Shown in pieces: positions 6,652 through 52,959 of a stretch of 64,000 bases of DNA (position 1 is the stretch's first letter; the number at the start of each line of letters is the position of its first letter). Under the pieces are notes generated by a model, which saw only the letters and a list, made by a program, of their open reading frames with translations, did no database searches and was not told where the DNA came from. The translations under genes were made by a program, and so were the position numbers. The DNA comes from Phycisphaerae bacterium (GTDB taxonomy: Bacteria > Planctomycetota > Phycisphaerae > Phycisphaerales > UBA5793): positions 3,046 to 67,045 of the forward strand of contig JBDIVQ010000003.1 in assembly GCA_039794345.1 (NCBI GenBank), read 5' to 3'.

Positions 6652-6733
6652 GATGGCGTGAGGGTATGGGGGTGGATGGGTCGGGGCGCGGTTGCCGCCC
6701 GCCTCGCGAACACGTCGGGAATGCACTTGGGCC

Positions 6734-6934
6734 GGCCGCAAAGAGGCACAAAGGGCGCCAACCGGGTGCGGCGGCGAACGCCGCGGCGCGCGAGGTCAAT
6801 CCTGCCGACCACTCAGCGTGGACGGCGCACTCGCAACGATCGCTCGACTCAATCGGCGCCGAACGAATCAATCCTCACTCGGCAGCGCGACCGCACGAGG
6901 ATCCTGTCTGTGACTTGTGTGCCTCTTCGCGGCC
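6734..6934. repeat. REP-like inverted pair (GGCCGCAAAGAGGCACA...)
   Basis: 6734-6758 GGCCGCAAAGAGGCACAAAGGGCGC faces the reverse complement of 6910-6934 (GGCCGCGAAGAGGCACACAAGTCAC). The same motif family recurs at 60426-60564. Confidence 0.6.
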
Positions 6935-7131
6935 ATCCCATCCCGACCGCGCCGGGGGCGCGGGGGCTCAGAGCCTGGGTGCCGTGGTCCGGAGGGAGGC
7001 TCTGCGACCGGAGGGCCACGCTGTCGCGCGGACGGACGATCACACTGCTTCGATCATCGATCGCGCATCTGCGTGGCCCGCGCTCCCGGAGCGTCGCTCG
7101 ACCACGGCACCCTGAGTTGCCATGCCGCCTC

Positions 7132-7377
7132 TCAGAGCGTCGCGTCGGTGTAGGGGAGCAGGCCGAGGTAGCGGGCCCGCTTGATCGCCTGGGCGATCAT
7201 CCGCTGCTCGCGGGCGCCGACGCCGATGCGCTTGCGCGAATACACCTTGCCGTTGGGGCTCATGAGGCGTCGGAGTTCATCGACGTCCTTGTAGTCCACG
7301 TACATCTTGCCCTTGGCGGACTTCTTGGCGATCTTGCTGGTGCGGAGCGGGGGGGGCTGTTCGACGTTGCGGGCCAT
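7132..7377 (-). CDS. rpsR: 30S ribosomal protein S18
   Basis: The 81-aa C-terminal part of ORF 7132..7779 reads MARNVEQ...YVDYKDVDELRRLMSPNGKVYSRKRIGVGAREQRMIAQAIKRARYLGLLPY. CAT at 7375-7377. Confidence 0.9.
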   Translation of the reverse strand: MARNVEQPPPLRTSKIAKKSAKGKMYVDYKDVDELRRLMSPNGKVYSRKRIGVGAREQRMIAQAIKRARYLGLLPYTDATL

Positions 7378-7621
7378 GAAAGCGGATCCTCTCGTGTCTC
7401 GGGTACCGGCGGAAGCGGCCGCGCCGCGATCAGTCCGCCGAAGCAGCCCCGGACCGGGCCGGGGCGACACATGGACAGCGGGTAGTCTAGGACCGGCCGG
7501 GCCGGGCGGCAAGAACGCCGCATCACCGGCGGCGGCCGGCGTTGCTAGAGTGGGCTGGGCCGCAGCCGGCCGGCCGGACCAGTCGCCCGGCCCCCGGCGC
7601 GGCATCAAGGAGTGCGTGGCG

Positions 7622-10409: not shown

Positions 10410-10488
<79 letters not shown>

Positions 10489-10602: not shown

Positions 10603-12003
10603 ATGCACAAAACCCCATCGTATCGACAGCGCCCCGGCTACGCGCAAGCGCTCGTCACCCTCACCGACGCCCGCACAAAACGGCGACGGGACTACTGGCT
10701 GGGCGAGTTCGGCTCGAGCGAGAGCCGCGAGCTCTACCACCGCCTCATCGCCGAATGGGAAAGCAACGACCGCCGCCTGCCCGAGACCGCGCTGCACCGC
10801 GCACCCCAAGGCGATGCCCGCGATCGTGATGAGGGCGATGGGCCCACCGTGCGCGAGGTCATCAAGCTCTACTGGCGCTGGGCGAGGAAGTACTACCAGC
10901 CCAACGAGTCAGGCACACTCAAGGTGGCGCTGCGCCTCCTTCGCCAGTTCTACGGCAGCACGCAGGCGGGCCAGTTCGGCCCCAAGCGCCTGCGCGTGCT
11001 GCGCGAGTCCATGATCTGTGGCGACACGACCTCCGCCAAGCCGCGCCAGCCCTGGTCGCGCATCTACATCAATCAGCAGACGCGGCGCATCCGCCAGATG
11101 TTCCGGTGGGCCGCCTCGCACGAACTCATCCCCTCGTCGGTGCCGCACGCGCTGGCGACGGTCGAACCCCTCAAGCGAGGCCGGACCGCCGCGCGCGAGG
11201 GCAAGCGCGTGCGTCCCGTCGACGAGGCGATGATCGAGGCGATCAAGCCCTTCGTGAGCCGGCAGGTCTGGGCGCTCGTGCAACTCCAGCTCGTCACCGG
11301 CGCGCGGAGCGGCGAACTGCTCCCCATGAGAATGATCGACATCGACACCTCCGACCGCTCAGGCGTCTGGGCCTACCGGCCCGTCGAGCACAAGAACGCT
11401 TTCCGCGGCAAGGACCGCGTCATCTACCTCGGACCGGCGGCCAAGAGAATCATCGAGCTCTTCATGACCGACCGCTCGGTGGATGCCTGCCTCTTCAGCG
11501 CCGCCGAGGCCGAAGCCGAGCGCCGGGCCGAACTGCACGCTCAGCGCAAGACACCGCTTAGTTGCGGCAACCGGCCCGGCACGAACCGTCGCAATCAGCC
11601 GGCGCACACGCCCGGCGACTGCTACACCACGCCGAGCTACTACCGCGCCATCCAGCGCGCCTGCGATCTGGCGTTCCCGCACCCCGACCCTGTCTACCAG
11701 CCGGGCGAGATTGTGGCCGCCCCCGTCCGCAATGGCACGAAGCCTCGCAGCCGGCTTGAGACGGCCAGCGAAGTGAACGCTCGCCTGACCGGCGAGCAAC
11801 GCAAGGCGCTCAAGGAGTGGCGAAGGAAGCACCGCTGGCATCCGCACCGGCTTCGCCACAACGCCGGCACCGCCATCCGCCGCGAGTTCGGCCTCGAAGC
11901 AGCGCAGCTCGTCCTCGGCCACAGCAGCGCCCAGATCACCGACGCCGTCTATGCCGACCGCGACCATTCCAAGGTCGTCGAGATCATGAAGCGGATCGGA
12001 TAG
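10603..12003 (+). CDS. tyrosine-type site-specific integrase
   Basis: AAAGGAG RBS. C-terminal catalytic motifs: TGARSGELL, HRLRHNAGT, LGHSS..ITDAVYADRD (R-H-R-Y). Confidence 0.9.
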   Translation: MHKTPSYRQRPGYAQALVTLTDARTKRRRDYWLGEFGSSESRELYHRLIAEWESNDRRLPETALHRAPQGDARDRDEGDGPTVREVIKLYWRWARKYYQPNESGTLKVALRLLRQFYGSTQAGQFGPKRLRVLRESMICGDTTSAKPRQPWSRIYINQQTRRIRQMFRWAASHELIPSSVPHALATVEPLKRGRTAAREGKRVRPVDEAMIEAIKPFVSRQVWALVQLQLVTGARSGELLPMRMIDIDTSDRSGVWAYRPVEHKNAFRGKDRVIYLGPAAKRIIELFMTDRSVDACLFSAAEAEAERRAELHAQRKTPLSCGNRPGTNRRNQPAHTPGDCYTTPSYYRAIQRACDLAFPHPDPVYQPGEIVAAPVRNGTKPRSRLETASEVNARLTGEQRKALKEWRRKHRWHPHRLRHNAGTAIRREFGLEAAQLVLGHSSAQITDAVYADRDHSKVVEIMKRIG

Positions 12004-12214: not shown

Positions 12215-12601
12215 ATGACCAAGGCAAGCGAAACACTCGATCACATCACACTCGGGGAGGCGAGTCACCTCGTCCCCGGTCGCCCGTCCACGAACTGCAT
12301 GTGGCGATGGTGTCGGAAGGGCGTCCTCGCCCGAAGCGGCGAGCGCATCCGTCTTGAGCACGTCCGTATCGGCGGGCGGATCTTCACCCGGCCGAACTGG
12401 GTGGATGAGTTCAGCCACCGGCTGACTGCGGCGGATGTTTCCTACTTCGACGCTCGGGAGGCGGCGGCGAAGGAACTGCCGGGCCGCGATCCGCGTTTCG
12501 ATCCGCCCAGGCGCCATCGCCGCCTGCGGCAGCCCGCTCGCGCGGCCACCACCCAACGCCAGGATGAGATCGATCGCGAGCTCGATGAGGAAGGCCTCTG
12601 A
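12215..12601 (+). CDS. small HTH DNA-binding protein (excisionase/regulator-like)
   Basis: GGAGGA RBS before ATG 12215. ITLGEASHLVPGRPSTNCMWRWCRKGVLARSGERIRLEHVRIGGRIFT resembles Xis/AlpA-type and planctomycete DUF1580-type HTH domains; this is from memory and unverified. Confidence 0.55.
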   Translation: MTKASETLDHITLGEASHLVPGRPSTNCMWRWCRKGVLARSGERIRLEHVRIGGRIFTRPNWVDEFSHRLTAADVSYFDAREAAAKELPGRDPRFDPPRRHRRLRQPARAATTQRQDEIDRELDEEGL

Positions 12602-12605
12602 CCAA

Positions 12606-15185
12606 GTGGCCTCCTCAGCGCCGCCCATCCTCGCCTCCGCCGCCCGGGCTGATCTCGTGGCTCCACCCGCAGCGGTGGCGCTCGATCCGACGCCCATCCC
12701 CGCCGCGCTGCGCGAGCGGCCGCAGTGGGTCGTCTGGAAGTACATCCTCCGCGAGGGCAAGTGGACCAAGGTTCCATTCAACGCCCGCACCGGCGAGCCC
12801 GCCAGCGCGACCGATCCGTCCACCTGGAGCACATTCGACGAGGCGGTGGCGGCATGCCGCAGTGACGATGGGTATGCGGGCATCGGGTTTGCCTTCAGCG
12901 AAGACGATCCGTTCGCCGGAATCGACCTCGACGACTGCATCGACGAGAATGGCAATCTCGTTCCTACCGCGCGTGAGATCGTGGACCAATTCAATTCGTG
13001 CACCGAAGTCTCGCCCAGCGGCAAGGGCGTCAAGATCTTCATTTGCGGTGTCAAGCCCGAAGGGTCAGGATGCAGGTCAAAGAAGATCGACGGCTTCAAG
13101 GAAACTGAGATCTACGACCGCGAGCGGTACTTCACTGTGACGGGCCAGCACCTCTCAGGCACACCGGTCTCCATCGAGCCGCGACAGGCCGAACTGGAGG
13201 CGCTATGCGAACGACTGTGGCCGACGCGGTCGCGTGGCGACTCCCCGCCCGACACCCCGCCCGCCACACCCGTTGAACTCGACGATGCCAATCTCATCGA
13301 ACGTGCATCCAACGCGAAGAACGGCAGCAAATTCAGACGCCTGTGGGCCGGTGACACCTCAACGCATGGTGGAGATGACAGTGCGGCCGACGTGGCGCTG
13401 TGCTGCATGCTCGCGTTCTGGACCGGCGGCGACGGCAATCGCATGGACGCACTCTTCCGACAGTCAGGCTTGTACCGGGAGAAGTGGGACAAGAGGCGAG
13501 GCAACACGACTTATGGACAGCGGACCATTGAATTCGCCATCGCGGGGACCAAGGACTTCTACGGACCCGGCAAGGGCAGCGACGCGTCGCCCGATACAAA
13601 CAGTGAACCGCCATCCGATGGCCGACCCCTCATCTTCCTCAGCGCCCGCGAAGACCTTTCGATCGACGAGGCGGTCGAGGCGCTGCGCGCCGAAGACAAC
13701 CTCTACCACCGCGGCTGCAAGCTCGTCCGCGTCGTTCGTGAGCCGCGACGACGCCAGCCGTCCGGCCGGCGAAGCGCCCGCGTGCGACGACCCGAGGGAG
13801 CCGCGTTCATCCAGTTGATGCCCGCCGAGAGCCTTCGAGAGCGATTGGCGCACCGAGCTCGCATCGTCCAATGCAACGCCAAGGGCGAATGGGTGAATGC
13901 CCATCCGACTCCCTGGCTCGTCTCCGGCACGATGGCCCGCGCTGTGTGGCCGGGACTTCGATCACTCTGCGGGATCTCCCACACCCCGATCCTGCGTCCA
14001 GATGGCACGATTCACCAGGAGCCGGGTTACGACTCCGAGACCGGCGTGCTGTTCCTGCCCGAGCCGGGCGTGTCGTTCCCGCCCATTCACCCCGATGTCG
14101 CCTACGACGAAGCCGACGTCGCGCGCGACGAACTGCTCGAGGTGGTCTGTGATTTTCCGTTTGCTTCCGATGCCCATCGCGCGGCGTGGCTGGCGTCGCT
14201 CCTGACTCCCCTGGCGCGGCACGCGTTCGACGGCCCGGCGCCCCTGTTCGCTGTCGATTCGAACATCCGAGGTTCAGGCAAGACGCTGCTCGTGCAGGCG
14301 ACCAGCCTCATCGCGATGGGCCGGCCGGTGTCGGTGAGCGCCTATGCCCACGACATCGCCGAAATGCAGAAGCGCATCACCGCCATCGCGATCGCAGGTG
14401 ATCCGATTGTCCTGCTCGACAATCTGAGCGGGACATTCGGAAATGCCGCGCTCGATCGCGCGCTGACCTGCGACCGGTGGCAGGACCGGATGCTCGGCCG
14501 CAACGAGAATGTCGATCTGCCGCTGCAGACGATCTGGTTCGCCAGCGGCAACAACATCATCCTCGCCGCCGACACGGCGCGTCGGGTGATTCACATCCGG
14601 CTGGACTGCCTCGAAGACGCTCCGGAGGAGCGAGGGGGCTTCAAGCACAGCGATCTCCTGGTGTGGGTGGCAGAGCACCGGCCGCGATTGGTGGTGGCGG
14701 GTCTCACGATCCTGAGGGCCTTTTTCAACGCAGGCTGCCCCCAGAGTGAGGTCCCGCCGTTCGGGTCGTATGAAGGGTGGTCACACATTGTGCGTCATGC
14801 CGTGATCTGGGTAAGTCTTCCCGATCCATGTCAGACCCGCGCGGCACTCGCCGAGACCTCGGACTCAACCGTTGATGGATTGCGGCAGTTCATCGCGGCC
14901 TGCATCGCCTGCGACCCTCAACAGAACGGCTGGACCGCCGCCGGCCTGCTCGGTCGCCTCTATCCGCCGCACCGCGACCAGATGCCCACCGACGCTGCAA
15001 GCATCGAATTGCGCGGGGCCATCGAAGCGTTCGTCGCCTGCCCGGCGGGCAAGACGCCGACCTCTCACTCGCTCGCCCGCCGCCTCACCGCTATGCGGCG
15101 TCGGCCTGTGAGCGGGCGCTACATCGACATGGTGCCCAACACGCCCAAGGGCAGTGCCGCTCGCTGGAGGGTGGTGACCCCATGA
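12606..15185 (+). CDS. bifunctional primase-polymerase (PrimPol) / P-loop NTPase replication protein
   Basis: PrimPol motifs AGIDLDDC and SPSGKGVKIF. PriCT-like region ADVALCCMLAFWTGGD...FRQSGLYREKW. Walker A GSGKTLL and Walker B IVLLDN. Start GTG 12606 or ATG 12585. Confidence 0.8.
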   Translation: MASSAPPILASAARADLVAPPAAVALDPTPIPAALRERPQWVVWKYILREGKWTKVPFNARTGEPASATDPSTWSTFDEAVAACRSDDGYAGIGFAFSEDDPFAGIDLDDCIDENGNLVPTAREIVDQFNSCTEVSPSGKGVKIFICGVKPEGSGCRSKKIDGFKETEIYDRERYFTVTGQHLSGTPVSIEPRQAELEALCERLWPTRSRGDSPPDTPPATPVELDDANLIERASNAKNGSKFRRLWAGDTSTHGGDDSAADVALCCMLAFWTGGDGNRMDALFRQSGLYREKWDKRRGNTTYGQRTIEFAIAGTKDFYGPGKGSDASPDTNSEPPSDGRPLIFLSAREDLSIDEAVEALRAEDNLYHRGCKLVRVVREPRRRQPSGRRSARVRRPEGAAFIQLMPAESLRERLAHRARIVQCNAKGEWVNAHPTPWLVSGTMARAVWPGLRSLCGISHTPILRPDGTIHQEPGYDSETGVLFLPEPGVSFPPIHPDVAYDEADVARDELLEVVCDFPFASDAHRAAWLASLLTPLARHAFDGPAPLFAVDSNIRGSGKTLLVQATSLIAMGRPVSVSAYAHDIAEMQKRITAIAIAGDPIVLLDNLSGTFGNAALDRALTCDRWQDRMLGRNENVDLPLQTIWFASGNNIILAADTARRVIHIRLDCLEDAPEERGGFKHSDLLVWVAEHRPRLVVAGLTILRAFFNAGCPQSEVPPFGSYEGWSHIVRHAVIWVSLPDPCQTRAALAETSDSTVDGLRQFIAACIACDPQQNGWTAAGLLGRLYPPHRDQMPTDAASIELRGAIEAFVACPAGKTPTSHSLARRLTAMRRRPVSGRYIDMVPNTPKGSAARWRVVTP

Positions 15186-15190
15186 CGAAA

Positions 15191-15310
15191 CTGATCCTGA
15201 TGATCGTACTGATCCTGTTCCAATACCTTTCGCGCGAAAGAAGGGGGTGGGAGGTATCAAAACAAAACAGAGAGAGCGGTAAACAGGATCAGCAGAATCA
15301 GCAGGATCAG
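15191..15310. repeat. GATC-rich imperfect inverted repeat
   Basis: 29-nt arms at 15191-15219 and 15282-15310 match at 25/29 positions. Five GATC sites and a purine-rich spacer. Confidence 0.6.
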
Positions 15311-15717
15311 CGCCGCCTGTGTTCCGCCACGTCGCGTGGGCAATGGTGGGCGGAACTCAAACGAGCGTCATGTGCCTCTTCGAGTCGTTGCCCCTCGTGC
15401 GGCCGGGGCTGCGGTGGCCCAACGCTTCGCCGCGCGCCTGCAGGACGCCACACGGCCCAACGTCGTGGCCCACGGGGCCAAGGGGCGGCAGGGCCGACCG
15501 GTGGCCGGTCAGAATCCTGTCGGGGCTTCAGACGGGGACCATCTCGCCTGCGTGCGCGGTTTTCCGCAGAATTCCGCAGGGGGGGTGGTCGCCGGAATCG
15601 GCGTTGGTGGCGCAGGAAGGCCGATTCTGGCCGATTTGGCGCGACACAGGACGGGTCAACTTTGGGCAAAGTCGAGCGCAACGGGCAGGTGCCTCGGCCA
15701 ATGACGGAGATTGACGA

Positions 15718-16227
15718 GTGAAACGCGGTCGGAAACCAACACCAACGGTGCTCAGGCAACTGCGAGGCAACCCCTCGAAGCGCGCGATCAACCACCGCGA
15801 GCCGCAGCCGCCTCCCGGCCTGCCTGCGTGCCCGCGCTGGCTGGACGCCGAGGGCAAAAAGGTCTGGCACGAGATCGTGCCGCAGTTGAAGGCGATGCGC
15901 CTGCTGGCGCGCATTGACAAAGGCGTGATCGCCAGGTATTGCGACGCATGGTCGCAATGGAAGCGGAACCGGGAGTTCCTGCGCACGAACGGCGACTGCT
16001 ATCCGATCAAGGACGACAGCGGCCGCGTGACCTACCTGCAGCCCTTCCCCCAACTCGCGCAGTTGAACCGGCTCGTTCAGCAGATGACCAACTTCGAGAG
16101 CGCCTTCGGCCTGTCGCCCAGTTCGCGCAGCACGATCCGGGTCAACGAAGGTGGCGGCGAACTGGATGCCTTCGAGCAAATGAGAATGGAAGCGCCGGTG
16201 ATCGGCAGAATTGGAACCGCATCATGA
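15718..16227 (+). CDS. phage terminase small subunit (P27 family-like)
   Basis: KRGRKPTPT..LRGNPSKR N-terminus, then W..IVP.L..M.LL...D, then FGLSPSSR. Confidence 0.75.
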   Translation: MKRGRKPTPTVLRQLRGNPSKRAINHREPQPPPGLPACPRWLDAEGKKVWHEIVPQLKAMRLLARIDKGVIARYCDAWSQWKRNREFLRTNGDCYPIKDDSGRVTYLQPFPQLAQLNRLVQQMTNFESAFGLSPSSRSTIRVNEGGGELDAFEQMRMEAPVIGRIGTAS

Positions 16228-17660
16228 ACGTCGTCGATCTCAAAGTTGAACTCCGGGCGATTGACTCGATCAGGCCGTTCGAACGGAACCCCCGCGTGAA
16301 TGACCGAGCGGTCGATGCGGTCGCGCACTCGGTTGCTTCGTACGGCTTCAAGCAGCCGATCGTGGTGGACGGCGACGGCGTCATCGTTGTCGGGCACACG
16401 AGATGGAAGGCCGCGTGCAAACTCGGCCTCGCGCAAGTCCCGGTTCATGTCGCGCACGATCTCACGCCCGAGCAGGCGCGAGCCTACCGCATCGCCGACA
16501 ACCAGACGAGCAATCTCTCGACGTGGGATCTTGAACTTCTGCCGCTCGAACTGCGCGACCTGAGCGCACTCGGCGTCGATCTCTCGTCGCTCGGCTTCAC
16601 GCTCGACGACCTCGCGCAACTGCTCGACCCGAATGGGAAGCAGGGTGAGTGCGACGCCGACGACATTCCTGAGCCACCCGACGATCCAGTCACGAAGCCA
16701 GGCGACCTATGGGTGTTGGGCGAGCATCGGTTGCTCTGCGGCGACTCTTCCAGCGCCGCCGATGTCGATCGGCTGCTCGATGGCCAGCCGATTCATCTTG
16801 CGAATTGCGATCCGCCTTATAACGTCCGCGTCGAACCGCGCAGCAACAACGCGATTGCGGCGGGCGTCACCTCGTTCGCGCGGCGCGCCGATCTCCAGTG
16901 CGATCACTCCACGACTGAGCGCGGCAAGAAGGATCGCGCGCGCAAGGCGAAGCGCATGCATCACCAGTCATTCGATCTCGCGCGACAAGGACCGAAGAAG
17001 CGAACGACGCGGCAGATGCGCGCGAAGGACAGGCCGCTTGAGAACGACTTCGTCAGTGACGAGGCGTTCGAGCAGATGCTCCTCGCGTGGTTCGGCAACA
17101 TCTCGCGCGTGCTGTTGCCGGGCCGGGCATTCTATTGCTGGGGCGGATACGCGAACGTCGCCAACTACCCGCCGGCACTCAAGGCGTGCGGCCTCTACTT
17201 CAGCCAGACGATCATCTGGCACAAGCAGCACCCGGTCCTCACACGCAAGGACTTCATGGGAGACCACGAATGGTGTTTCTACAGTTGGCGTGAAGGCGCC
17301 GCACACGTCTTCCTCGGCCCCAACAACGTGCCGGATGTGTGGTCGATCAAGAAGGTCAACCCAGCGTCGATGATCCACTTGACGGAGAAGCCTGTGGAAC
17401 TCGCCGTGCGCGCCATGCAGTACTCGTCGCGCGTCGGCGAGAACGTGATTGACTTGTTCGGGGGATCGGGTTCGACACTCATCGCCGCCGAGCAGACCGG
17501 TCGCCACGCATTCCTCATGGAGATCGACCCTGCGTACTGCGATGTCATCGTCCGAAGATACGAGGCGTTTTCAGGGAAGACGGCGGAACTTGGGGGCGCT
17601 CGTTCGGCGGATGCTTCCGGATCGATACCCGCTGCAATTGTCAAAGAGGAGCCACGATGA
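16224..17660 (+). CDS. ParB-like nuclease domain fused to N4/N6 DNA methyltransferase
   Basis: ATG 16224 overlaps the TerS stop. ParB box VVDGDGVIVVGHTRWKAA. Methylase motifs CDPPYN and TEKPVEL...DLFGGSGSTLIAAE. Confidence 0.85.
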   Translation: MNVVDLKVELRAIDSIRPFERNPRVNDRAVDAVAHSVASYGFKQPIVVDGDGVIVVGHTRWKAACKLGLAQVPVHVAHDLTPEQARAYRIADNQTSNLSTWDLELLPLELRDLSALGVDLSSLGFTLDDLAQLLDPNGKQGECDADDIPEPPDDPVTKPGDLWVLGEHRLLCGDSSSAADVDRLLDGQPIHLANCDPPYNVRVEPRSNNAIAAGVTSFARRADLQCDHSTTERGKKDRARKAKRMHHQSFDLARQGPKKRTTRQMRAKDRPLENDFVSDEAFEQMLLAWFGNISRVLLPGRAFYCWGGYANVANYPPALKACGLYFSQTIIWHKQHPVLTRKDFMGDHEWCFYSWREGAAHVFLGPNNVPDVWSIKKVNPASMIHLTEKPVELAVRAMQYSSRVGENVIDLFGGSGSTLIAAEQTGRHAFLMEIDPAYCDVIVRRYEAFSGKTAELGGARSADASGSIPAAIVKEEPR

Positions 17661-17731
17661 TCGCAGCCCACTGCTATCGTCCACGTCAAACCATCCACAG
17701 CCACGTATTGATTCCGGTAGAGGGTGATACG

Positions 17732-18676
17732 ATGTTCACCACACGGAGTCAAACCATGCCGGTTATCGATCCAAAGTGTCTCGACTGCGTAGTCTATCTC
17801 TACTACTCCCGAGACCAGGCCGAACGAGGTATCGACGTAGGTGGAACGGGGTTCTTTGTCGGCATGAACTTCGAGGATGGCAGGCCATTTCTACACGCCT
17901 ACATCGTCACCAACGCGCACATTGTGAGTGACGCTGGCCCCGACGGTCCCATCGTCGTGCGAATCAATACTCTCGATGGTCATAGGAGGTGCATCGAATC
18001 CAGGGGGAGCGATTGGGAATGCCATCCCGCGGGGGACGATTTGGCAGTGCTGTCCTTGCGAGGCGCCCCTTCGTCCTTACGGATCGCCACTATGAACGTC
18101 GAGTCGTTTGTCACACGAGAGGCAATCCAGAGGGACGGGTTTGGCATCGGCGATGATGTGTTCATGGTCGGTCGGTATGTTGATCACCAGGGGACTCAGA
18201 GGAATCTGCCGACAGTTCGCTTCGGGAATATTGCCCAAATGCCGGACGAGCCCATTGTTCATCCGGATGGCCACGAACAAGAGAGCTTTCTCGTTGACAT
18301 GCGGTCCATTGGGGGTTTCAGCGGCGCACCGGTGTTTCTGTACACATTGGCAACTGGGCCGAAGACGATTCCAACGCGGTATCGTGCACGGGCTGAAGGC
18401 AGGCATCCGTATGTAGGGCCGCTGCTCCTTGGCGTTGATTGGGCCCACATGCCCGTTAGCGGCACCGGTGAAATCCGGGAGAAGGGCGCGCCGCCCAAGA
18501 AGGTGTCCGTCTGGTTAGACTCGTCAATGGCGTGTGTGATACCGGCGTGGCGGCTGTTGGACTTCTTGCAAGATGAACGATTCGTGCAACAACGGAGCAT
18601 GGATGAACGCAACGATGGTGATCGAGAACCTCGTGTCGTTCTTGACACGTCACCTGATCAGGATGTTGAACAGTGA
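17732..18676 (+). CDS. trypsin-like serine peptidase domain protein
   Basis: TNAHIV (His), DLAVLSL (Asp) and GGFSGAPVF (Ser) occur in the canonical order. Confidence 0.55.
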   Translation: MFTTRSQTMPVIDPKCLDCVVYLYYSRDQAERGIDVGGTGFFVGMNFEDGRPFLHAYIVTNAHIVSDAGPDGPIVVRINTLDGHRRCIESRGSDWECHPAGDDLAVLSLRGAPSSLRIATMNVESFVTREAIQRDGFGIGDDVFMVGRYVDHQGTQRNLPTVRFGNIAQMPDEPIVHPDGHEQESFLVDMRSIGGFSGAPVFLYTLATGPKTIPTRYRARAEGRHPYVGPLLLGVDWAHMPVSGTGEIREKGAPPKKVSVWLDSSMACVIPAWRLLDFLQDERFVQQRSMDERNDGDREPRVVLDTSPDQDVEQ

Positions 18677-18780
18677 CGCCTGACCGGAAGTCGCTGGTTC
18701 TTCCCACATCTGGTGGCTCCAGCCGCAGACACAGCCGCGACCTTGGCCACGGCTATGAATGCTCGACGGAGATGGGCCCG

Positions 18781-19170
18781 CTACTCGCTCGCTGGCTCCG
18801 GCCCTTTCTCGCGCAAGGCGTGGTATTCGATCAGCGCATCCTCGTAGACAAAGTCGCTCGCGGCGATGTGCTTGCGGTTGCGGGCGGGCACGATGCACGA
18901 CCGCTCCTTGAGGAACGCGATGGCGACGGCGACCTGCGACCACGGCGGCATGATCGATTCGTCGCCGCCGCCAGCCTTGGCGCGGATGTCCTCCATCGTG
19001 AAGGACGCGTTGCCGAGTTGCTCGATGGCGTAGGCCACGTCGTCGTACACGGCCTTGGTGCAGGCATGCTCGTAGGGAGTGCCGCGCCTGGGCACGACGC
19101 GGCGCAGCAGCGCGCCGCTCGGGCCATCGACGACGAACGACTCATTGAGTTGGCGCGGCATGGTCATCAC
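18781..19170 (-). CDS. hypothetical protein
   Basis: Last gene of a tightly packed minus-strand run of 8 ORFs. No recognisable motif. Confidence 0.45.
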   Translation of the reverse strand: MMTMPRQLNESFVVDGPSGALLRRVVPRRGTPYEHACTKAVYDDVAYAIEQLGNASFTMEDIRAKAGGGDESIMPPWSQVAVAIAFLKERSCIVPARNRKHIAASDFVYEDALIEYHALREKGPEPASE

Positions 19171-19336
19171 CTCCTTCCTGCTTCGTGCGCGGCGGCGTGT
19201 AGACGTTCAGGCAGGTGGCGCAGCGGACGCGCTGGCCGTCTTCGATCCAGACGAGCCGGTCAACGCAGCGCTCCGCGCAGCGCGGGCAGGCGTCTTCGAT
19301 CGCGACGAGGTGGTCGCTGGGGGGTTCGTGGTTCAT
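19142..19336 (-). CDS. small zinc-ribbon protein
   Basis: CPRC...(18 aa)...CATC pair in 64 aa. Overlaps the downstream gene. Confidence 0.45.
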   Translation of the reverse strand: MNHEPPSDHLVAIEDACPRCAERCVDRLVWIEDGQRVRCATCLNVYTPPRTKQEGGDDHAAPTQ

Positions 19337-19353
19337 GGGTGGATGGTCCTTTC

Positions 19354-19557
19354 CTACAGCGCCAGCCGGGTGATGACGTCGTCAATGCGTTCATCCGCCG
19401 GCGTGGCGAGGGCGATGAGTCTGGTGATGACCTCGGCGCTGAGCATGACCAGCGCTTCGGCGTCGTTGATCTCCACGACCGGCCCCATGTCGGTGACGGC
19501 ATGCTCACTCAGGGCGTGGAGCGTGGACTTCTTTACGAGGACGACGAACTTCATCAT
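19354..19557 (-). CDS. hypothetical protein
   Basis: 67 aa. Starts 3 nt downstream of the stop of the upstream gene in the same run. Confidence 0.4.
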   Translation of the reverse strand: MMKFVVLVKKSTLHALSEHAVTDMGPVVEINDAEALVMLSAEVITRLIALATPADERIDDVITRLAL

Positions 19558-19560
19558 CGC

Positions 19561-20643
19561 TCACGCTCCCTTTCCGGCCGCCGTGAAGCGGCCTTTGTCG
19601 ACCTTGGCGAAGCGTGCTTCCTTGCCCTTGGCGGCAATCTCGCGGATCATCGCGGCGTAGAGCGTCGCGTGCGGCGTGGCGCCGTTGGTCTTCCAGCCCG
19701 CTGCGATGGCGCGCTCGGCGATCGTCTTCGCGTCGAGCGGTTCTTTGGCTCGGCCCAGCACCTGCGCTGCGGCGTCGAGGCCGCTCAAGCCATCGCGCTT
19801 CTTGCGCGGCTTGGCCTCGGCGGTGCCATCCTTGCCGCCGGTAGTCTTCGCGCTGCTGGTGCGAGCCTTCGGTGCGCCGCGATCGGGCGGCATGGTGATG
19901 CCCAGTTGCGCTGGCGATTTGCCGGTGAGCTGCTTGATCGACTGCTTGATGTGGAAGACGCCGGTGACATTGCCGACGGCGTCCACCTCGCGGCAGCCGG
20001 TCTTCTCATCGATGGGCGAGTCGGCGGGCACCCGGTAGAGCAGCGGCGTGCGGCCGTCGATGCGGAAGAAGAGTTCGTACAGTTTGCCGTTGCGCTTCCA
20101 GCAGACATGGTTGCGGCTGGTGGCCAGGTCCTGCACCTGTTTGGCGATCTCGGCGTGGTCGGGCTTGTTGACCAGCGCGATGCGCGGCGGCGTGCGTCGG
20201 CCTTTGCGTTTCTCGGCCGGCGGCGTCGTGGGCGTCGTGCCTTGGTTCGCCGCCGCTTCCGCAGCCTTCTTCACCCACCGCGAGCGTTCCTTGCCATCGA
20301 CGATCACCGTGTGCATGACGAGGCCCTTGGCCGCCGCCTTGGCGTCGCGCTCGGCGATGCGTGCGGCGTCCCTGTCAACAACGCGGCCCCCGGGTTTCAC
20401 GCCGGAGGCCGGTTTGGCATCCTTCTTGTCGCCCGCCGCTGGTGGCGGCGTCGCGGCCGACTTCGGCGGCCCCGCCTCAGTCCGCAACCGCTGGGCGCTC
20501 TTGATCCTCACCTTCTTCTTCGTGCCCAGGTTCGTCGCGTCCCAGCCGCCGTTGCGGTTTTCGGCGTCGATGCGCACCTTGGCGATGGTGCCGCTCACCT
20601 TCGCGGTGTAGGTGTTTCCGATCTTGATCTCGTTCTTCTTCAT
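19561..20643 (-). CDS. DNA-binding protein with C-terminal HARE-HTH-like domain
   Basis: C-terminus [46 protein letters not shown]...[12 protein letters not shown] fits the HARE-HTH pattern. Lys/Pro-rich linkers. Confidence 0.55.
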
Positions 20644-20691
20644 GCTCGTTCTCCTTTCGTGAGTCGAGCGGTTGGTGGAAATGAACCGCCA

Positions 20692-21000
20692 TCACGCGAT
20701 GGCGAGTTCTTCAATGACCTGAAAGTTCGGCGAGATGGTCCAGCGCGGCCGGCCGCTGGCGTCGGTGGCGATGATGCGACTGCTCACGTTCGACGCGTCG
20801 GCGAAGGCGGCGAACATGCGCTGCGTCGCGCGACGTGCGGCGGCCACGATGCCCTCGGGCGTGCCGTCGTGGCTGGCGACGAGATGGTCGAGGACGATGC
20901 CGTCGCGGTCGCAGGCCTCGCGGATGACGACGTTGGGCGCGGCGGCGGCGCTTCGTCGGGCGGCGCGGTGGCGTTCGATCTGAATGGTGCTGGTGTTCAT
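20692..21000 (-). CDS. hypothetical protein
   Basis: 102 aa. Part of the minus-strand run. Confidence 0.45.
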   Translation of the reverse strand: MNTSTIQIERHRAARRSAAAAPNVVIREACDRDGIVLDHLVASHDGTPEGIVAAARRATQRMFAAFADASNVSSRIIATDASGRPRWTISPNFQVIEELAIA

Positions 21001-21012
21001 GGCGCTCCTCCT

Positions 21013-21267
21013 TCACTTGCCCGTCGGCACCGGCGTGATTTCGATCTCGCGGCCGCATGCGGGGCACACGGCCTTGGTCGGCCGCGCTGCCTGCCGTCCC
21101 GCCTCGTAGGCTCGCTCCAGCGCTTCTTTGACGCACCACACCGCGAGGTCGTGGAAGTCGAGGCGGTCGCTCTTGCGGGTCTCCAAGGTCTCAAGGCCGA
21201 GGGCCTCGCGGGCGATGGTGTTCAGGGTGTTGTCGCGTGTGATGCTCATGGCGTCTCCGTTTCGCAT
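21013..21267 (-). CDS. hypothetical protein (C-terminal CxxC)
   Basis: 84 aa. Part of the minus-strand run. Confidence 0.45.
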   Translation of the reverse strand: MRNGDAMSITRDNTLNTIAREALGLETLETRKSDRLDFHDLAVWCVKEALERAYEAGRQAARPTKAVCPACGREIEITPVPTGK

Positions 21268-21276
21268 TGTGGTGGT

Positions 21277-21531
21277 TCAGCAGCCCGCGATGCGTTCGAT
21301 CTCGGTCTGCACCGCGTGGATCATCGAGTTGGTGGCGGCCGCGCGGCCCTTGCGGTCGACGCCGTAGATGGCCATCGCCGCCGCCCGCGCTGCGGTCCAG
21401 CGCTGCTCGTCGCTGCTATGGCGCGGCAGTTCGATGCACGTCTGCCCGAAGAGAATCTGCGCCCCGTAGTCGGCGTCTCGAATCTCGACGTCGCCGTCGA
21501 CGCCCTTGATGGTCATTCGTTTGATGGTCAT
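21277..21531 (-). CDS. hypothetical protein
   Basis: 84 aa. Part of the minus-strand run. Confidence 0.45.
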   Translation of the reverse strand: MTIKRMTIKGVDGDVEIRDADYGAQILFGQTCIELPRHSSDEQRWTAARAAAMAIYGVDRKGRAAATNSMIHAVQTEIERIAGC

Positions 21532-21573
21532 GGTCGTGGTCCTTTCGCGTTTGCTGGTGGTGGTTGGTGTGGT

Positions 21574-21879
21574 TCAGATCGCGCTGACGTTGGCGACGAG
21601 CATCGCCGCGCGAACGACGGCGTCGAGTTCGCTTCGCTGCTCGGCCGTGAGTTCCTCGACCTTCTTCTCGAAGAGGCGGTGCGCGATCGAGCGGCGCGTG
21701 GTGTCGATTGCCTTGGGCATGAAGCCGTACGTCGGTGCGTACATGTCGCCGACAGAGACGTTGGCCTGCCCATCCTGAAAGTCATTCCACCCGCCGCCGC
21801 TGCGGTGCGCCGCGCTGGCGGTCACCTGAACGTCGGCGCTGTGGACCCGGATGGTGATGGTTTCGATTCGCGTGCTCAT
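21574..21879 (-). CDS. hypothetical protein (first gene of the minus-strand run)
   Basis: Starts MSTRIETITI, with CAT at 21877-21879. The longer track ORF up to 22044 is Cys/Arg-rich leader. Confidence 0.45.
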   Translation of the reverse strand: MSTRIETITIRVHSADVQVTASAAHRSGGGWNDFQDGQANVSVGDMYAPTYGFMPKAIDTTRRSIAHRLFEKKVEELTAEQRSELDAVVRAAMLVANVSAI

Positions 21880-22207
21880 GTTGATGCGTCCTTTCGCTGT
21901 TGTTCGCGGGCGGCGTATTCCGCCTCGCATTGCACACATGAGGGCATGCAAAGCGCGAAGATGCAAGGGCAATCGCCGAGGATTCCAGCACATTTCGCAG
22001 ATTGTGGGCAACTCCGCCAAACATGTGGGCAAGTCGCTAGGCATGTGCTAGGTAAGGCCGAACCTCGCGCCAGGTTCGCCCGTGTCGGCGAGCCGCAGCG
22101 CCTGGCCCAACGCCTCGGCCCGGGCGCGCCCATCGCCGCCAGCGGCAACGTCGCCGCCCACGGCTCGCCCTGGCGCACCACGCCGCTCCATTCGGAAAGG
22201 ACCGCCA

Positions 22208-22591
22208 ATGCCACGCACCACGCTGGCCCAACTCGCCAAGGCGCGCTTCGCCGCCCTGCGCGCCAAGGTGAGCAGCGCCACCCCCCAGCGACCATCCGCC
22301 TCCGCGCGCGGTTACGACGCGCGGTGGCGCAGGCGACGGCTCATTCAGTTGCGACGCGAACCGTTGTGCCGCATCTGCAAAGCGCAGGGACGCCTCACAC
22401 CCGCTACCGAGGTCGATCACATCATCCCGCTCAACGCGGGCGGGCCCGACACCTTCGCCAACTACCAATCCGCCTGCACCTCATGCCACTCCAAAAAGAC
22501 CGCGCGCGAGGATGGCGGCTTCGGACACGCGCCCCGCAGGAGAGACCGACAGGAGTTGCCCGGCGATGACGCACCCGATCTTCCTGGCTGA
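22208..22591 (+). CDS. phage-type HNH endonuclease
   Basis: CRIC...EVDHIIPLNAGGPDTFANYQSACTSCHSKKT. Lies immediately upstream of and overlaps TerL. Confidence 0.8.
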   Translation: MPRTTLAQLAKARFAALRAKVSSATPQRPSASARGYDARWRRRRLIQLRREPLCRICKAQGRLTPATEVDHIIPLNAGGPDTFANYQSACTSCHSKKTAREDGGFGHAPRRRDRQELPGDDAPDLPG

Positions 22592-24203
22592 GCCCGCCGT
22601 CGATATCACCGTCGAGCCGGAGATCATCTGCGCCGCCGATGAGGTGGCGCTGAGCCAGGGCTGCACCTACGACCCGGCCCGGGGCCTGCACGTAGTGAAC
22701 TTCATCCAGACCTTCTGCCGCCACAGCAAGGGGCAGTACGCCGGGCAGCCCTTCATCCTCCTGCCCTGGCAGTACCGATTCGTCATGCGGCTGTACTCGT
22801 GGGTGCGGTCCGACGCGACGCGGCGCTTCCGCCGCGCCTACATCGAGGCGCCAAAAAAAGGAGGCAAATCCCTCTGGGCCAGCGCCCTCTCGCTCTACCA
22901 CCTGTGCATGGATGGCGAAGATGGCGCCGAGGTCTACAACGCCGCCTGCGACCGCTCCCAGGCCAGCATCGTGTGGAACGAAGCCGCCAACATGGTCAGC
23001 CAATCGCCTCAACTGGCGCGCCGCCTCAACCCCATCCGCTCGACCAAGCGCATTACCTTCGAGGCGACGCACTCGGTCTACCAGGCGCTCTCGGCCGATG
23101 CGCCCACCAAGGAGGGTCTCAACGCCTCCTTCACCCTCTTCGATGAACTCCATGCTCAGAAGGACCGAGACCTGTGGGACCGCCTCTATTATGCCGGGCG
23201 GGTCCGCCGCCAGCCCCTGCACATGGTCATCACCACGGCCGGCACCGACCGCGAATCTCTGTGCTGGGAGCAGCACCAGGCGGCGCAGGCGGTCATCGAC
23301 GGGACTTCGACCGACACCAGCCTGTGCGCCGTCATCTACTGCGCCGACGAGGATGATGACTGGACCGATCCCAAGGTCTGGGCCAAGGCCAACCCTTCCT
23401 ACGGCACGCTCATCACCGAAGAGAGCATGCGCGAAGAGTGCGATGAGGCGAAGCGCTCGCCCACCAGCGAGGCGCGTTTCCAGCGCTACTGCCTCAACAT
23501 CTGGACGCGCCCCGACACCAAGGCGATTCGCGACACCGACTGGCGCGCCTGCAAGGTCGATCTTGATCCCGAGTCCCTCAAGGGCAAGTGGTGCTTCGTG
23601 GGCCTTGACCTCGCCTCGGTCCGCGACATGGCGGCGATGACCTTCGTCTTCCCGGAAGAGGATGGCACGTACACGATCTGGCCGCACCTCTTCGTGCCCC
23701 TCATCGGCCTCGATCAGAAGGAGCGTCACGATCGCGTGCCCTACCGCCAGTGGACGCAGGATGGCCATCTGCTCACCACGCCGGGCAAGACCTTGGACTA
23801 CTCCTTCATCCGCCAGCGGCTCATCGACCTGCGCGAAGAGGGCTACAAGGTGCAGTCCGTCGGCTACGACCCGTGGAACGCCGACCAGACGGCCCACATC
23901 CTCTCAGGCGAAGGGTTCAGCATGGTCGAGGTCCGGCAGGGGTACCGCAGCATGTCAGAGCCGAGCAAGGTCTTCGAGCGACTGGTCATCGAGCACAAGT
24001 TCCGCCACGGCGGCAACCCGGCGATGGACTGGATGACGGGAAACCTCATGTGGATGAGCGATCCCAAGGGCAATCGCTACCCGACGAAGGAGAACGAGAT
24101 GTCCAAGGTCGACGGGCCGGTCGCGGCGATCATCGGGCTCGCCGTGGCGCTGCTCAGCGACCCGCCGCCGCAGGATCCGCCGGTGTACATCAGTGTGTGG
24201 TAG
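22566..24203 (+). CDS. phage terminase large subunit
   Basis: Walker A-like EAPKKGGKS, Walker B LFDELH, and a C-terminal nuclease region (VGLDLAS...GYDPWNA). Typical Terminase_1 layout. Confidence 0.9.
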   Translation: MTHPIFLAEPAVDITVEPEIICAADEVALSQGCTYDPARGLHVVNFIQTFCRHSKGQYAGQPFILLPWQYRFVMRLYSWVRSDATRRFRRAYIEAPKKGGKSLWASALSLYHLCMDGEDGAEVYNAACDRSQASIVWNEAANMVSQSPQLARRLNPIRSTKRITFEATHSVYQALSADAPTKEGLNASFTLFDELHAQKDRDLWDRLYYAGRVRRQPLHMVITTAGTDRESLCWEQHQAAQAVIDGTSTDTSLCAVIYCADEDDDWTDPKVWAKANPSYGTLITEESMREECDEAKRSPTSEARFQRYCLNIWTRPDTKAIRDTDWRACKVDLDPESLKGKWCFVGLDLASVRDMAAMTFVFPEEDGTYTIWPHLFVPLIGLDQKERHDRVPYRQWTQDGHLLTTPGKTLDYSFIRQRLIDLREEGYKVQSVGYDPWNADQTAHILSGEGFSMVEVRQGYRSMSEPSKVFERLVIEHKFRHGGNPAMDWMTGNLMWMSDPKGNRYPTKENEMSKVDGPVAAIIGLAVALLSDPPPQDPPVYISVW

Positions 24204-24328
24204 CGCAGCGTGTCGGCACGCCCTCCAATCAACACCGGAAGTGTGTACCTGCTGGAAATCTTCCGGATTCCCCTTGGCAACGTATTTCCAGTAGGTATCA
24301 TAATTGTAGGTACCGAAAGGGGAATCAG

Positions 24329-25285
24329 ATGCCTCGCAAGAAGCCCGGCAAAGTCGGTGAGAACAAGTTCGAAGTGATCCGAAACATCCCCCACCCCTGC
24401 GCGAACGAGCGGGCGGCGGTGGAGTTCATAGAGTCCCAGCGCTGGGAAGATACGCCCTGTTGCCCCCATTGCGGGGATACTGACGTTTACCAGATGAAGG
24501 GCCGCGACGGGGAGCGGGAGAAGAACTACCGTTGGAGGTGCAAGGGCTGTGGTGAACGGTACACCGTTCGGACGGGGACGGTCATGGCAGAGACCCGAAT
24601 GCCGCTTCGGTACTGGTGTCACGCCTTCTGGCGCGTCTGCGCCAGCAAGAAGGGCGTCAGTGCCAAGCAGATTCAGCGAGAGACCGGACTGTCCTATAAG
24701 TCCGCCCTGTTCCTTCTCCACCGGGTTCGCTTTGCGATGGCCGATATGGACGGAGTGAAACTCTCCGGAACCGTTGAGGTTGACGAGACGTACACCGGCG
24801 GCAAGCTACGGTTCAGGGGGCCGCACAACAAGCGAGGGCGGGGAACCAGCAAGCAGCCCGTTATGGCGATGGTCGAACGCGGCGGACGGGTGAAGTCTCG
24901 GGTAATCGCCGACGTGACTGCCGCCACTCTCCGCGCTGCGGTAAATGAACACGTTGAACGACCTGCGCACCTGATGAGTGACGAGAACCCGTGCTACGTC
25001 GGTCTCGCGGCCGAGTACGCAAGCCACCAGTCCACAAAGCACAGCGCGAAAGAGTACGTTCGCGGCGACGTTCACAGCAACACCGCCGAGAGCGTCTTCG
25101 CTGTGTTCAAGCGTGGCGTCTACGGCGTGTACCACAACATCAGCAAGAAGCACCTGCACCGATACCTCGCCGAGTTTGACTTTCGCTGGAACACCAGAAA
25201 GGATGATGACGGAGAACGGACGGCGAAAGCGATCCAATCCGCTGTCGGCAAGCGCCTTATGTACCAAGGTCCGTGTGCAGCATGA
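24329..25285 (+). CDS. IS1595-family transposase
   Basis: N-terminal Zn ribbon CCPHCG...CKGCG. DDE region VEVDETY, LMSDENPCY, NTAESVFAVFKR. IS ends were not resolved. Confidence 0.85.
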   Translation: MPRKKPGKVGENKFEVIRNIPHPCANERAAVEFIESQRWEDTPCCPHCGDTDVYQMKGRDGEREKNYRWRCKGCGERYTVRTGTVMAETRMPLRYWCHAFWRVCASKKGVSAKQIQRETGLSYKSALFLLHRVRFAMADMDGVKLSGTVEVDETYTGGKLRFRGPHNKRGRGTSKQPVMAMVERGGRVKSRVIADVTAATLRAAVNEHVERPAHLMSDENPCYVGLAAEYASHQSTKHSAKEYVRGDVHSNTAESVFAVFKRGVYGVYHNISKKHLHRYLAEFDFRWNTRKDDDGERTAKAIQSAVGKRLMYQGPCAA

Positions 25286-25327
25286 GGATGAATCGCTGAT
25301 CGTCGAATGTCTGATTGATCGCAACGA

Positions 25328-52911: not shown

Positions 52912-52959
52912 TTCCCAAGCTGAATGTCGAGGGTTCGAGTCCCTTTGCCCGCTTTGGAC
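52912..52959 (+). repeat. attR core (displaced 3' fragment of tRNA-Gly)
   Basis: 47/48 identity to 10441-10488. The upstream sequence cannot form the 5' half of a tRNA. Confidence 0.85.

Follow-up and report, generated by a model that had tools for sequence, protein, structure and literature searches.

An integrative island with a terminase and no head genes in a Phycisphaerae bacterium: a candidate phage satellite

We have analysed a 64,000-nucleotide stretch of the genome of a Phycisphaerae bacterium (Planctomycetota; GenBank assembly GCA_039794345.1, contig JBDIVQ010000003.1), referred to below as the window, and describe within it a 42,519-bp island delimited by a 48-nt direct repeat at a tRNA-Gly(CCC) gene. 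The left 13.8 kb of the island, its conserved core, holds a module of replication and packaging genes. A preliminary description of the sequence had named in this module a helix-turn-helix (HTH) protein, a PrimPol/P-loop primase, the small terminase subunit TerS, a ParB-methylase fusion, an HNH protein and the large terminase subunit TerL, and Pfam, PHROGs and the start codons confirmed all six at their positions; a Trypsin_2 peptidase and seven genes on the minus strand had been passed over. Genes were called by G+C content at third codon positions (GC3) and then checked with Pfam and PHROGs; six-frame lists of open reading frames (ORFs) are rich in artefacts here because the G+C content is high (~67% in the flanks). 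The features of the island, in window coordinates, are as follows (aa, amino acids).

10410-10482, plus strand: tRNA-Gly(CCC) gene, the sole tRNA gene found (ARAGORN, Rfam)
10441-10488, plus strand: attL, the copy of the 48-nt repeat that covers the 3' part of the tRNA gene (repeat search)
10603-12003, plus strand: tyrosine integrase, 466 aa (Pfam Phage_integrase, 1.3e-11)
12215-12601, plus strand: small HTH protein, DUF1580-like (Pfam DUF1580, 23 bits, below the 24.4-bit cut-off)
12585-15185, plus strand: replicase, 866 aa, with PrimPol, NrS-1-type helix-bundle and P-loop helicase domains (Pfam NrS1-1_pol-like_HBD, 2.5e-30)
15191-15310: 29-nt inverted repeat composed of CTGATCCTG / CAGGATCAG units flanking an A-rich spacer, immediately 3' of the replicase gene (repeat search)
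15413-15480, plus strand: copy 1 of a candidate cis-element of ~65 nt, upstream of terS (alignment)
15718-16227, plus strand: TerS, P27 / Terminase_4 family (Pfam 1.9e-22, profile positions 1-95 of 98; phrog_83, 2.3e-39)
16224-17660, plus strand: fusion of ParB_N and an N6/N4 DNA methyltransferase (Pfam)
17657-18676, plus strand: trypsin-like serine peptidase (Pfam Trypsin_2; PADLOC PDC-S45, a candidate defence family)
18781-22044, minus strand: conserved block of seven small genes (GC3 calling; Pfam HARE-HTH, DUF6900)
22103-22163, plus strand: copy 2 of the ~65-nt element, ~45 nt upstream of the HNH start (blastn, alignment, 13-mer search)
22208-22591, plus strand: HNH endonuclease of the terminase-accompanying type (Pfam HNH, 1.3e-14, profile positions 1-47 of 47)
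22566-24203, plus strand: TerL, HK97-like, 545 aa (Pfam TerL_ATPase and TerL_nuclease, both full length; phrog_9, 2e-161)
24329-25285, plus strand: IS1595-family transposase gene, starting 125 nt after the TerL stop (Pfam DDE_Tnp_IS1595, Zn_ribbon_IS1595)
25328-52701: variable cargo, ~27 kb (Pfam, PADLOC, PHROGs)
51205-52701: 498-aa protein adjoining attR, with two internal repeats of ~170 aa (motif PCxDCLDPLA...IEVCRxWLE) and an HTH-like tail at the C-terminus
52912-52959, plus strand: attR, the other copy of the 48-nt repeat, identical at 47 of 48 positions (repeat search)

The island is a discrete and complete mobile element with its own integration functions. A 24-mer taken from the att repeat matches twice in the window (0.00 matches expected), and the search of the window with it found no internal copy between attL and attR. 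G+C content amounts to 64.8% in the core, 61.7% in the cargo and 67.2% in the flanks, and is back at the chromosomal level beyond attR. This is the one element that was viewed end to end, within 64 kb of genome in view; Logan contigs bearing the window replicase all break at the att repeat and carry no information on a circle junction. The samples of the window are SRR28812185-87.

The absence of portal, capsid, protease, tail and lysis genes from the island, asserted in the preliminary description together with a proposal for profile searches of its ORFs, held when those searches were run. No such family was matched by the ~31 called genes in Pfam or PHROGs, and the 115 other six-frame island ORFs of at least 100 aa gave zero matches to PHROGs. 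Hidden Markov models for portal, major capsid protein and protease, built iteratively from the phage loci that were fetched, found nothing in the island, though 138 of the fetched phage loci matched them. Head-and-packaging matches in the island are limited to TerS and TerL, and the same methods reveal head and tail genes in the control phages L083 and L179, which are described below. PADLOC, run on called genes, brought up no structural or lysis gene either. The unannotated remainder, made up of proteins of 254, 207, 248 and 498 aa and small minus-strand proteins, is too few and too small for a virion. The island lacks the head, tail and lysis modules of an intact temperate prophage.

The packaging genes themselves appear to be in working order. 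TerL retains all invariant columns of an alignment of 14 sequences, real phage included, the PKKxGKS and DELH motifs among these. Judged from their sequences, TerL is intact and the terminase genes are full length with their catalytic motifs, not degraded. The HNH protein is 77–78% identical in two related loci, L001 and L081, with a ratio of nonsynonymous to synonymous substitution rates (dN/dS) of 0.21–0.39.

Relatives were sought by scanning one genome per species with TerL, and further loci by protein searches and context look-ups. The genome scan returned one close relative, L001, from the Planctomycetaceae metagenome-assembled genome (MAG) GCA_040255465.1, whose TerL is 84% identical to that of the window and whose genes stand in the window order of PrimPol, TerS, ParB-methylase, minus-strand block, HNH and TerL. 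After TerL follow genes for YaaC, FG-GAP, Kelch, HNH and non-specific endonuclease proteins, with no portal and no insertion sequence (IS); no att repeat of L001 was found within 10 kb after TerL. The upstream part of this locus, L177, is integrated beside tRNA-Met(CAT) and has an integrase 39% identical to that of the window. The following further loci are informative.

L081: TerL 86% identical to the window; after TerL, DUF2924 and an RHS protein
L085 (Symmachiella dynata): TerL ~50% identical; after TerL, a SIR2 protein
L086 (Pirellulaceae): TerL ~50% identical; after TerL, a glycosyltransferase and RHS
L088: TerL ~50% identical; after TerL, DUF1937, HARE-HTH, an IS and a peptidase
L089: TerL ~50% identical; after TerL, an ECF (extracytoplasmic function) sigma factor and kinases

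The last four have a recombinase and/or PrimPol, ParB-methylase, HNH, TerS and TerL, with HARE-HTH nearby in each, and in nearly all relatives the ParB-methylase gene adjoins the terminase genes. L083 (P0005), with a TerL 61% identical to that of the window, is an ordinary siphovirus in which HNH, TerS and TerL are followed by portal, S49 protease, capsid, connector and tail genes.

Loci pooled from genome, metagenome and IMG/VR scans were scored for a portal gene after TerL. Such a gene follows TerL in 0 of 10 distinct loci falling in two clades, each viewed for 2.5 kb or more beyond TerL, as against 215 of 221 among all other loci with this TerL family (Fisher p = 8e-14, a value that overstates independence, the ten loci being two clades). 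The ten, mostly from Planctomycetota, are the window (WIN), L001, L081, L085, L086, L088, L089, L101, L105 (the same as L183) and L114, and they carry the module of PrimPol, ParB-methylase, HARE-HTH, HNH, TerS and TerL. In a neighbour-joining tree of TerL, clade A (WIN, L081, L001) is sister to phage L083, and clade B (L085, L086, L088, L089, L101, L105, L114) is sister to phage L099, both phages having a portal directly after TerL. The head-less state is conserved in the relatives. Complete genomes bearing clade-B elements include CP036276 (Symmachiella dynata), OW818684 and a Pirellulaceae assembly, GCA_002967765.1.

A third portal-less case may be L178, with a TerL of the lambda type. This locus is syntenic with a true prophage, L179 (uncultured, JGI metagenome 3300082588), at 45–71% identity through TerL, after which the portal and capsid genes found in L179 are missing; the two share a serine recombinase, DUF2924, PrimPol, ParB-methylase, HARE-HTH, DUF6900 and TerL. 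Other portal-less loci (L002, L063, L064, L149, L156, L162) are heterogeneous, with a weak tape-measure match, a Mu-like transposase with RnlA, or an AAA ATPase among them, and were not counted as members. Three of these, L156, L162 and L002, come from non-planctomycete metagenomes or MAGs and have ParB-methylase, TerS and TerL with no portal next. In one of them a serine recombinase accompanies DUF2924, and in another TerL is followed by a Mu-like transposase and an RnlA toxin; absence of the head genes may therefore extend beyond Planctomycetota. In L183 (IMG/VR UViG_3300041809_003457), a tyrosine integrase lies directly after TerL. This locus also contains two TerL genes 3 kb apart (629-2674 and 5700-7469) of different families, the lambda gpA type and the HK97 type, with ParB-methylase, HARE-HTH, HNH and TerS in between, and may be two elements in tandem.

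The TerL stop codon marks the point beyond which WIN, L001 and L081 share no DNA homology. Remnants of structural genes were sought with tblastn in 11 portal-less loci, the queries being 127 ORFs that lie beyond TerL in eight related phages. None was found at E ≤ 0.01; the matches obtained came from overlapping frames within TerL and, in one isolated case of 29 bits, from the minus-strand block of L178. Pairwise dN/dS for TerL was 0.13–0.17 in clade A (dS 0.5–0.8) and 0.07–0.18 in clade B (dS > 1), compared with 0.05–0.18 in phages with portals. TerL is under purifying selection, and the portal-less proteins are held to the same constraint as those of real phages; the C-terminus of PrimPol, HARE-HTH and DUF6900 are constrained as well, like HNH. 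TerS diverges much faster than TerL (48% versus 84% identity), as expected of the subunit that confers DNA specificity. Selection on TerL, the absence of remnants and the fact that WIN and L001 differ in att site and integrase together show that the head-less core has persisted, diversified and moved, and the sister at tRNA-Met with its 39%-identical integrase indicates that it has moved between sites and genomes. Comparison of these sequences thus points to none of the fragments, relaxed selection or vertical-only inheritance that mark a decaying prophage.

The preliminary description had correctly placed an IS1595-type transposase gene 125 nt after TerL, and defence cargo behind it, where PADLOC agrees; it had offered as one of two readings a prophage whose morphogenesis module was truncated or replaced at this IS. 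The data do not favour that account. In L001/L177 the module ends at the same TerL stop without an IS, and no terminal inverted repeats above chance were found around the transposase gene (best inverted match 14, shuffle mean 15.5), so that neither the ends nor the presence of an intact IS is demonstrated here. Because the relatives lack it and the transposase gene has no terminal repeats above chance, the IS is not the cause of the missing genes. The gene may be a degenerate or domesticated copy. In the region around it (24204-25327) there is a match to a sigma-70-like promoter at 24274-24301.

We consider it rather probable that the island is a satellite which contributes TerS, HNH and TerL itself and depends on a helper phage for procapsids, tails and lysis, a reading drawn entirely from comparative genomics. 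It would be an integrative phage satellite of a previously undescribed group, found mostly in Planctomycetota. The second reading of the preliminary description, a phage-parasitic element resembling the phage-inducible chromosomal islands (PICIs), fits the ten portal-less loci, the two clades and the selection on TerL in so far as it is phage-parasitic. The term ‘PICI-like’ suits the probable mode of working but not the identity of the element, which is 42.5 kb long and has its own TerL and HNH.

A competing account, a defective prophage descended from a temperate phage with this left arm that lost its whole morphogenesis and lysis module through deletion or through replacement by cargo, perhaps at the IS, and whose remaining genes have yet to decay, seems to us unlikely. 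It draws on the synteny of portal-less L178 with a prophage that continues into portal and capsid genes, on the transposase gene just after TerL and on a cargo G+C content below that of the core. Yet L001 and L081 end at the same TerL stop with no IS, the transposase gene lacks IS ends, structural pseudogene fragments were absent from the 11 loci, the TerL dN/dS of both portal-less clades equals that of phages across dS values from 0.5 to more than 2, and neither the tRNA site nor the integrase of the core is constant, so that it has stayed mobile. Related intact prophages do exist, L179 among them, a finding that the preliminary description would have counted against a satellite if joined with decay of the terminase genes, but those genes are not degraded here.

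Two further accounts keep the terminase functional and change its purpose. If the head genes lay elsewhere in the chromosome, as in a bipartite prophage or a system like a gene transfer agent, the particle would be under host control and the island no parasite; a terminase conserved without linked head genes is in keeping with this, and the 64 kb in view leaves room for distant head genes. We nevertheless judge such a split or domesticated system quite improbable, for at a tRNA gene the island forms a discrete mobile element, bounded by an integrase, with its own replicase and variable defence cargo, and its sister, at another site with another integrase, behaves as a selfish element would. 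The terminase set might instead sabotage infecting phages, by competing for procapsids or cutting concatemers, with little or no self-transfer. The island is packed with defence systems, and known satellites hinder helper packaging through TerS or terminase-targeting proteins (PMC11417361, PMC10690885). However, a full set of integrase, replicase, TerS, HNH and TerL, in which TerS evolves fast and TerL slowly, is what self-packaging leads one to expect, and interference is compatible with self-transfer; interference as the main role is, in our view, very improbable.

Several points weigh against a satellite. No helper phage was identified for this genome in the 64 kb in view, and no cos or pac site was identified; packaging into particles is inferred from the genes, and no close relatives of the window TerL or PrimPol were found in IMG/VR. 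The two portal-less clades amount to about two independent events, not ten, and the TerL tree that defines them is a neighbour-joining tree without support values. Relatives were viewed up to 10 kb past TerL, which leaves room for structural genes farther off. True prophages of the L179 type share the left arm, so that descent by deletion is certain. An AbiEi/AbiEii pair lies between TerL and portal in L179 (18714-20242), so that this junction takes insertions or cargo even in complete phages.

If the island is a satellite, its cycle might run as follows. The tyrosine integrase, probably aided by the adjacent small HTH protein, would excise the island between the 48-nt repeats, and the PrimPol-helicase would replicate the resulting circle, probably from the inverted-repeat region 3' of its gene. 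TerS, HNH and TerL, expressed from two operons that share the ~65-nt upstream element, would act on the DNA of the satellite itself, recognising it, cutting it and driving it into procapsids. These procapsids, together with tails and lysis, would come from an HK97-like siphovirus that is either resident in the same cell or infecting it. The stretch after TerL would serve as a cargo slot for defence systems. An element about as long as a complete phage genome would have no need of a smaller helper capsid. The longer IMG/VR contigs with this TerL family measure 38–44 kb (as contigs, their completeness unchecked), close to the 42.5 kb of the island, so a capsid of normal size would fit it, although this is a weak argument.

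The two non-coding elements invoked above are candidates identified from repeats and alignments. An equivalent of the inverted repeat occurs in L001 (1018-1134, alignment), and in PICIs the origin lies 3' of the replicase gene, the equivalent position. The repeat is a candidate replication origin; alternatively, it may encode two short hydrophobic peptides, which the substitutions fit as well. Each clade-A element has two copies of the ~65-nt sequence, one upstream of terS and the other upstream of HNH-terL (in L001 at 1224-1290 and 9592-9648; in L081 at 76-138). Its core 13-mer, CGTCGYSGCCCAC, matches the window twice, in copy 1 and at 22149, against 0.04 matches expected, and is limited to clade A among 262 fetched loci. 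Blocks of 17–21 nt within the element are perfectly conserved beside a TerS of only 48% identity. As an RNA the element found no support, the covariation term of RNAalifold being unfavourable (+2) and Rfam matching only the tRNA, and it was treated as a DNA site. On its most straightforward interpretation it is probably a shared, perhaps late, promoter/operator for both packaging operons, possibly responsive to a helper signal; the alternative is a recognition site for the terminase.

Of the remaining genes in the core, the small HTH protein corresponds to a 128-aa gene as called on the Logan contigs. It resembles DUF1580, which we take to be a planctomycete family, and its position between integrase and primase makes it a candidate excisionase or AlpA-type regulator. 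The replicase matches PHROG DNA primase and primase/helicase families and has a GSGKT Walker A motif in its translation. Between sister replicases (12585-15185 in the window, 10001-12766 in L177) the C-terminal helicase part is 72% identical, while the N-terminal primase domains differ: the window has the NrS-1 type (PF22763), and L177 has Prim-Pol (PF09250). One domain has been exchanged within a single gene. The Trypsin_2 peptidase gave no tblastn match in the sister L001 and seems to mark another small site of variation, which lies between the methylase and the minus-strand block. The products of that block measure 129 aa, 67 aa, 360 aa (HARE-HTH), 102 aa, 84 aa (DUF6900), 84 aa and 156 aa; homologues of five of the seven occur in L001 at 37–90% identity, and HARE-HTH and DUF6900 are present in the real phage L179 too. 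A plus-strand ORF of 1298 aa (18673-22569) in the same region was rejected as a GC-rich artefact, AT skew and GC3 both showing that the opposite strand codes. This ORF lies antisense to seven real genes, a trap for the automatic annotation of a G+C-rich genome.

The cargo begins behind the transposase gene. It comprises a 254-aa protein, a PIN protein, a DUF4011 helicase-nuclease (PDC-S37 / Hhe-like), an AAA_16 / KAP NTPase, a type III methylase and restriction enzyme, a DUF4268 protein (PDC-S11), an F5/8 type C domain protein, an Mrr nuclease, a GmrSD-like protein (HEC-05), a ParA-like ATPase and the 498-aa protein. For the last of these no family or PDB match was found, and PDB sequence searches with it and with the HARE-HTH and HTH proteins gave nothing useful. 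The DNA that follows TerL appears to serve as a slot for cargo, occupied here by anti-phage defence systems, and as a hot spot for defence genes it should be useful in mining for new ones.

We regard the case for a wider class as evenly balanced. This class would consist of head-less satellites of phage-genome length in Planctomycetota and possibly other phyla, which carry a replicase and the full motor (TerS, HNH, TerL) and rely on helpers for nothing but empty procapsids, tails and lysis. Its members would have arisen on at least two or three occasions from temperate phages sharing one left arm, and would use the 3' end of TerL as a hot spot for defence cargo. A search signature for more of them is the combination of recombinase, PrimPol, ParB-methylase, HNH, TerS and TerL with no portal, and cultured strains with such elements exist, for example Symmachiella dynata.

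Classical PICIs, including the Staphylococcus aureus pathogenicity islands (SaPIs) such as the cos-type SaPIbov5 and the Gram-negative PICIs with int-alpA-pri, resemble the window element in having an integrase, a small HTH protein, a primase-replicase, a putative origin, packaging genes, site-specific integration, and accessory and defence cargo, with no structural or lysis genes. The window order of integrase, HTH protein and PrimPol is that of a classical PICI, with repeats 3' of the replicase that may be either an origin or small peptides. Classical PICIs are ~10–15 kb long and usually remodel capsids; the window island measures 42,519 bp, and its conserved core alone 13.8 kb. They also rely on helper TerL (and HNH), bringing at most TerS, Rpp or a cos site (PMC10690885), whereas the window element has its own TerL and HNH. 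The capsid-forming kind (cf-PICIs) likewise integrates, derives from HK97-like phages with several phage origins, and has its own TerS, TerL and HNH beside integrase and primase-replicase. It differs in encoding major capsid protein, portal, protease and head-tail adaptor or connector and in borrowing only tails; none of those genes was detected in the window element. The cf-PICIs are also several times smaller. In PMC10085698 and PMC10690885, TerL is the marker that separates cf-PICIs from ordinary PICIs, and among the satellites described there TerL and HNH occur together only in capsid-forming kinds.

P4-like satellites share with the island tRNA-associated integration, an integrase, a large primase-helicase and packaging into helper heads. 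They, too, carry defence hot spots. P4 itself, however, has no terminase genes, using the P2 terminase on its own cos site, and encodes Sid, Psu and Delta; neither these nor an alpha-type primase was matched in the island by PHROGs or Pfam, the replicase being of the NrS-1 PrimPol type. Satellites of the PLE (PICI-like element) family borrow the large terminase of their helper. The same dependence on helper TerL is stated for PICIs, P4 and VEIMEs (integrative mobile elements encapsidated in virions) in PMC10690885 and PMC9618062. The tycheposons and marine VEIMEs are environmental, lie often at tRNA genes, and have tyrosine recombinases, primase/helicase genes and variable cargo, some with TerS and HNH; unlike the window element they are reported with TerS only, TerL being expected from the helper, and are much smaller (PMC9618062). 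Terminases of the cos-type, HK97-like kind typically have HNH partners (Kala et al., 2014, cited in PMC9618062). The Streptomyces satellites MulchRoom and MiniFlayer have both terminase subunits and an HNH gene (PMC10690885), yet they encode portal, major capsid protein and scaffold and have no genes for replication, a division of labour contrary to that of the window element.

A further likeness is to temperate phages of the L179 type, which have the recombinase, DUF2924, a sigma-like protein, PrimPol (51%), ParB-methylase, HARE-HTH, DUF6900, TerS and TerL in the same order, but in which portal and capsid genes come next and TerL is of the lambda gpA type; such a phage is likely to be the kind of ancestor from which the island came, and not the same thing. 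In the literature searched, we found no paper on a terminase-carrying, head-less satellite or on satellites in Planctomycetota, and a motor on the satellite with the shell from the helper is a division of labour undescribed there for any satellite family. If our reading is correct, satellites extend to Planctomycetota, a satellite terminase is able to dock on a foreign portal, and a motor-only element fills the gap between satellites that borrow the TerL of their helper and those that carry a whole head.

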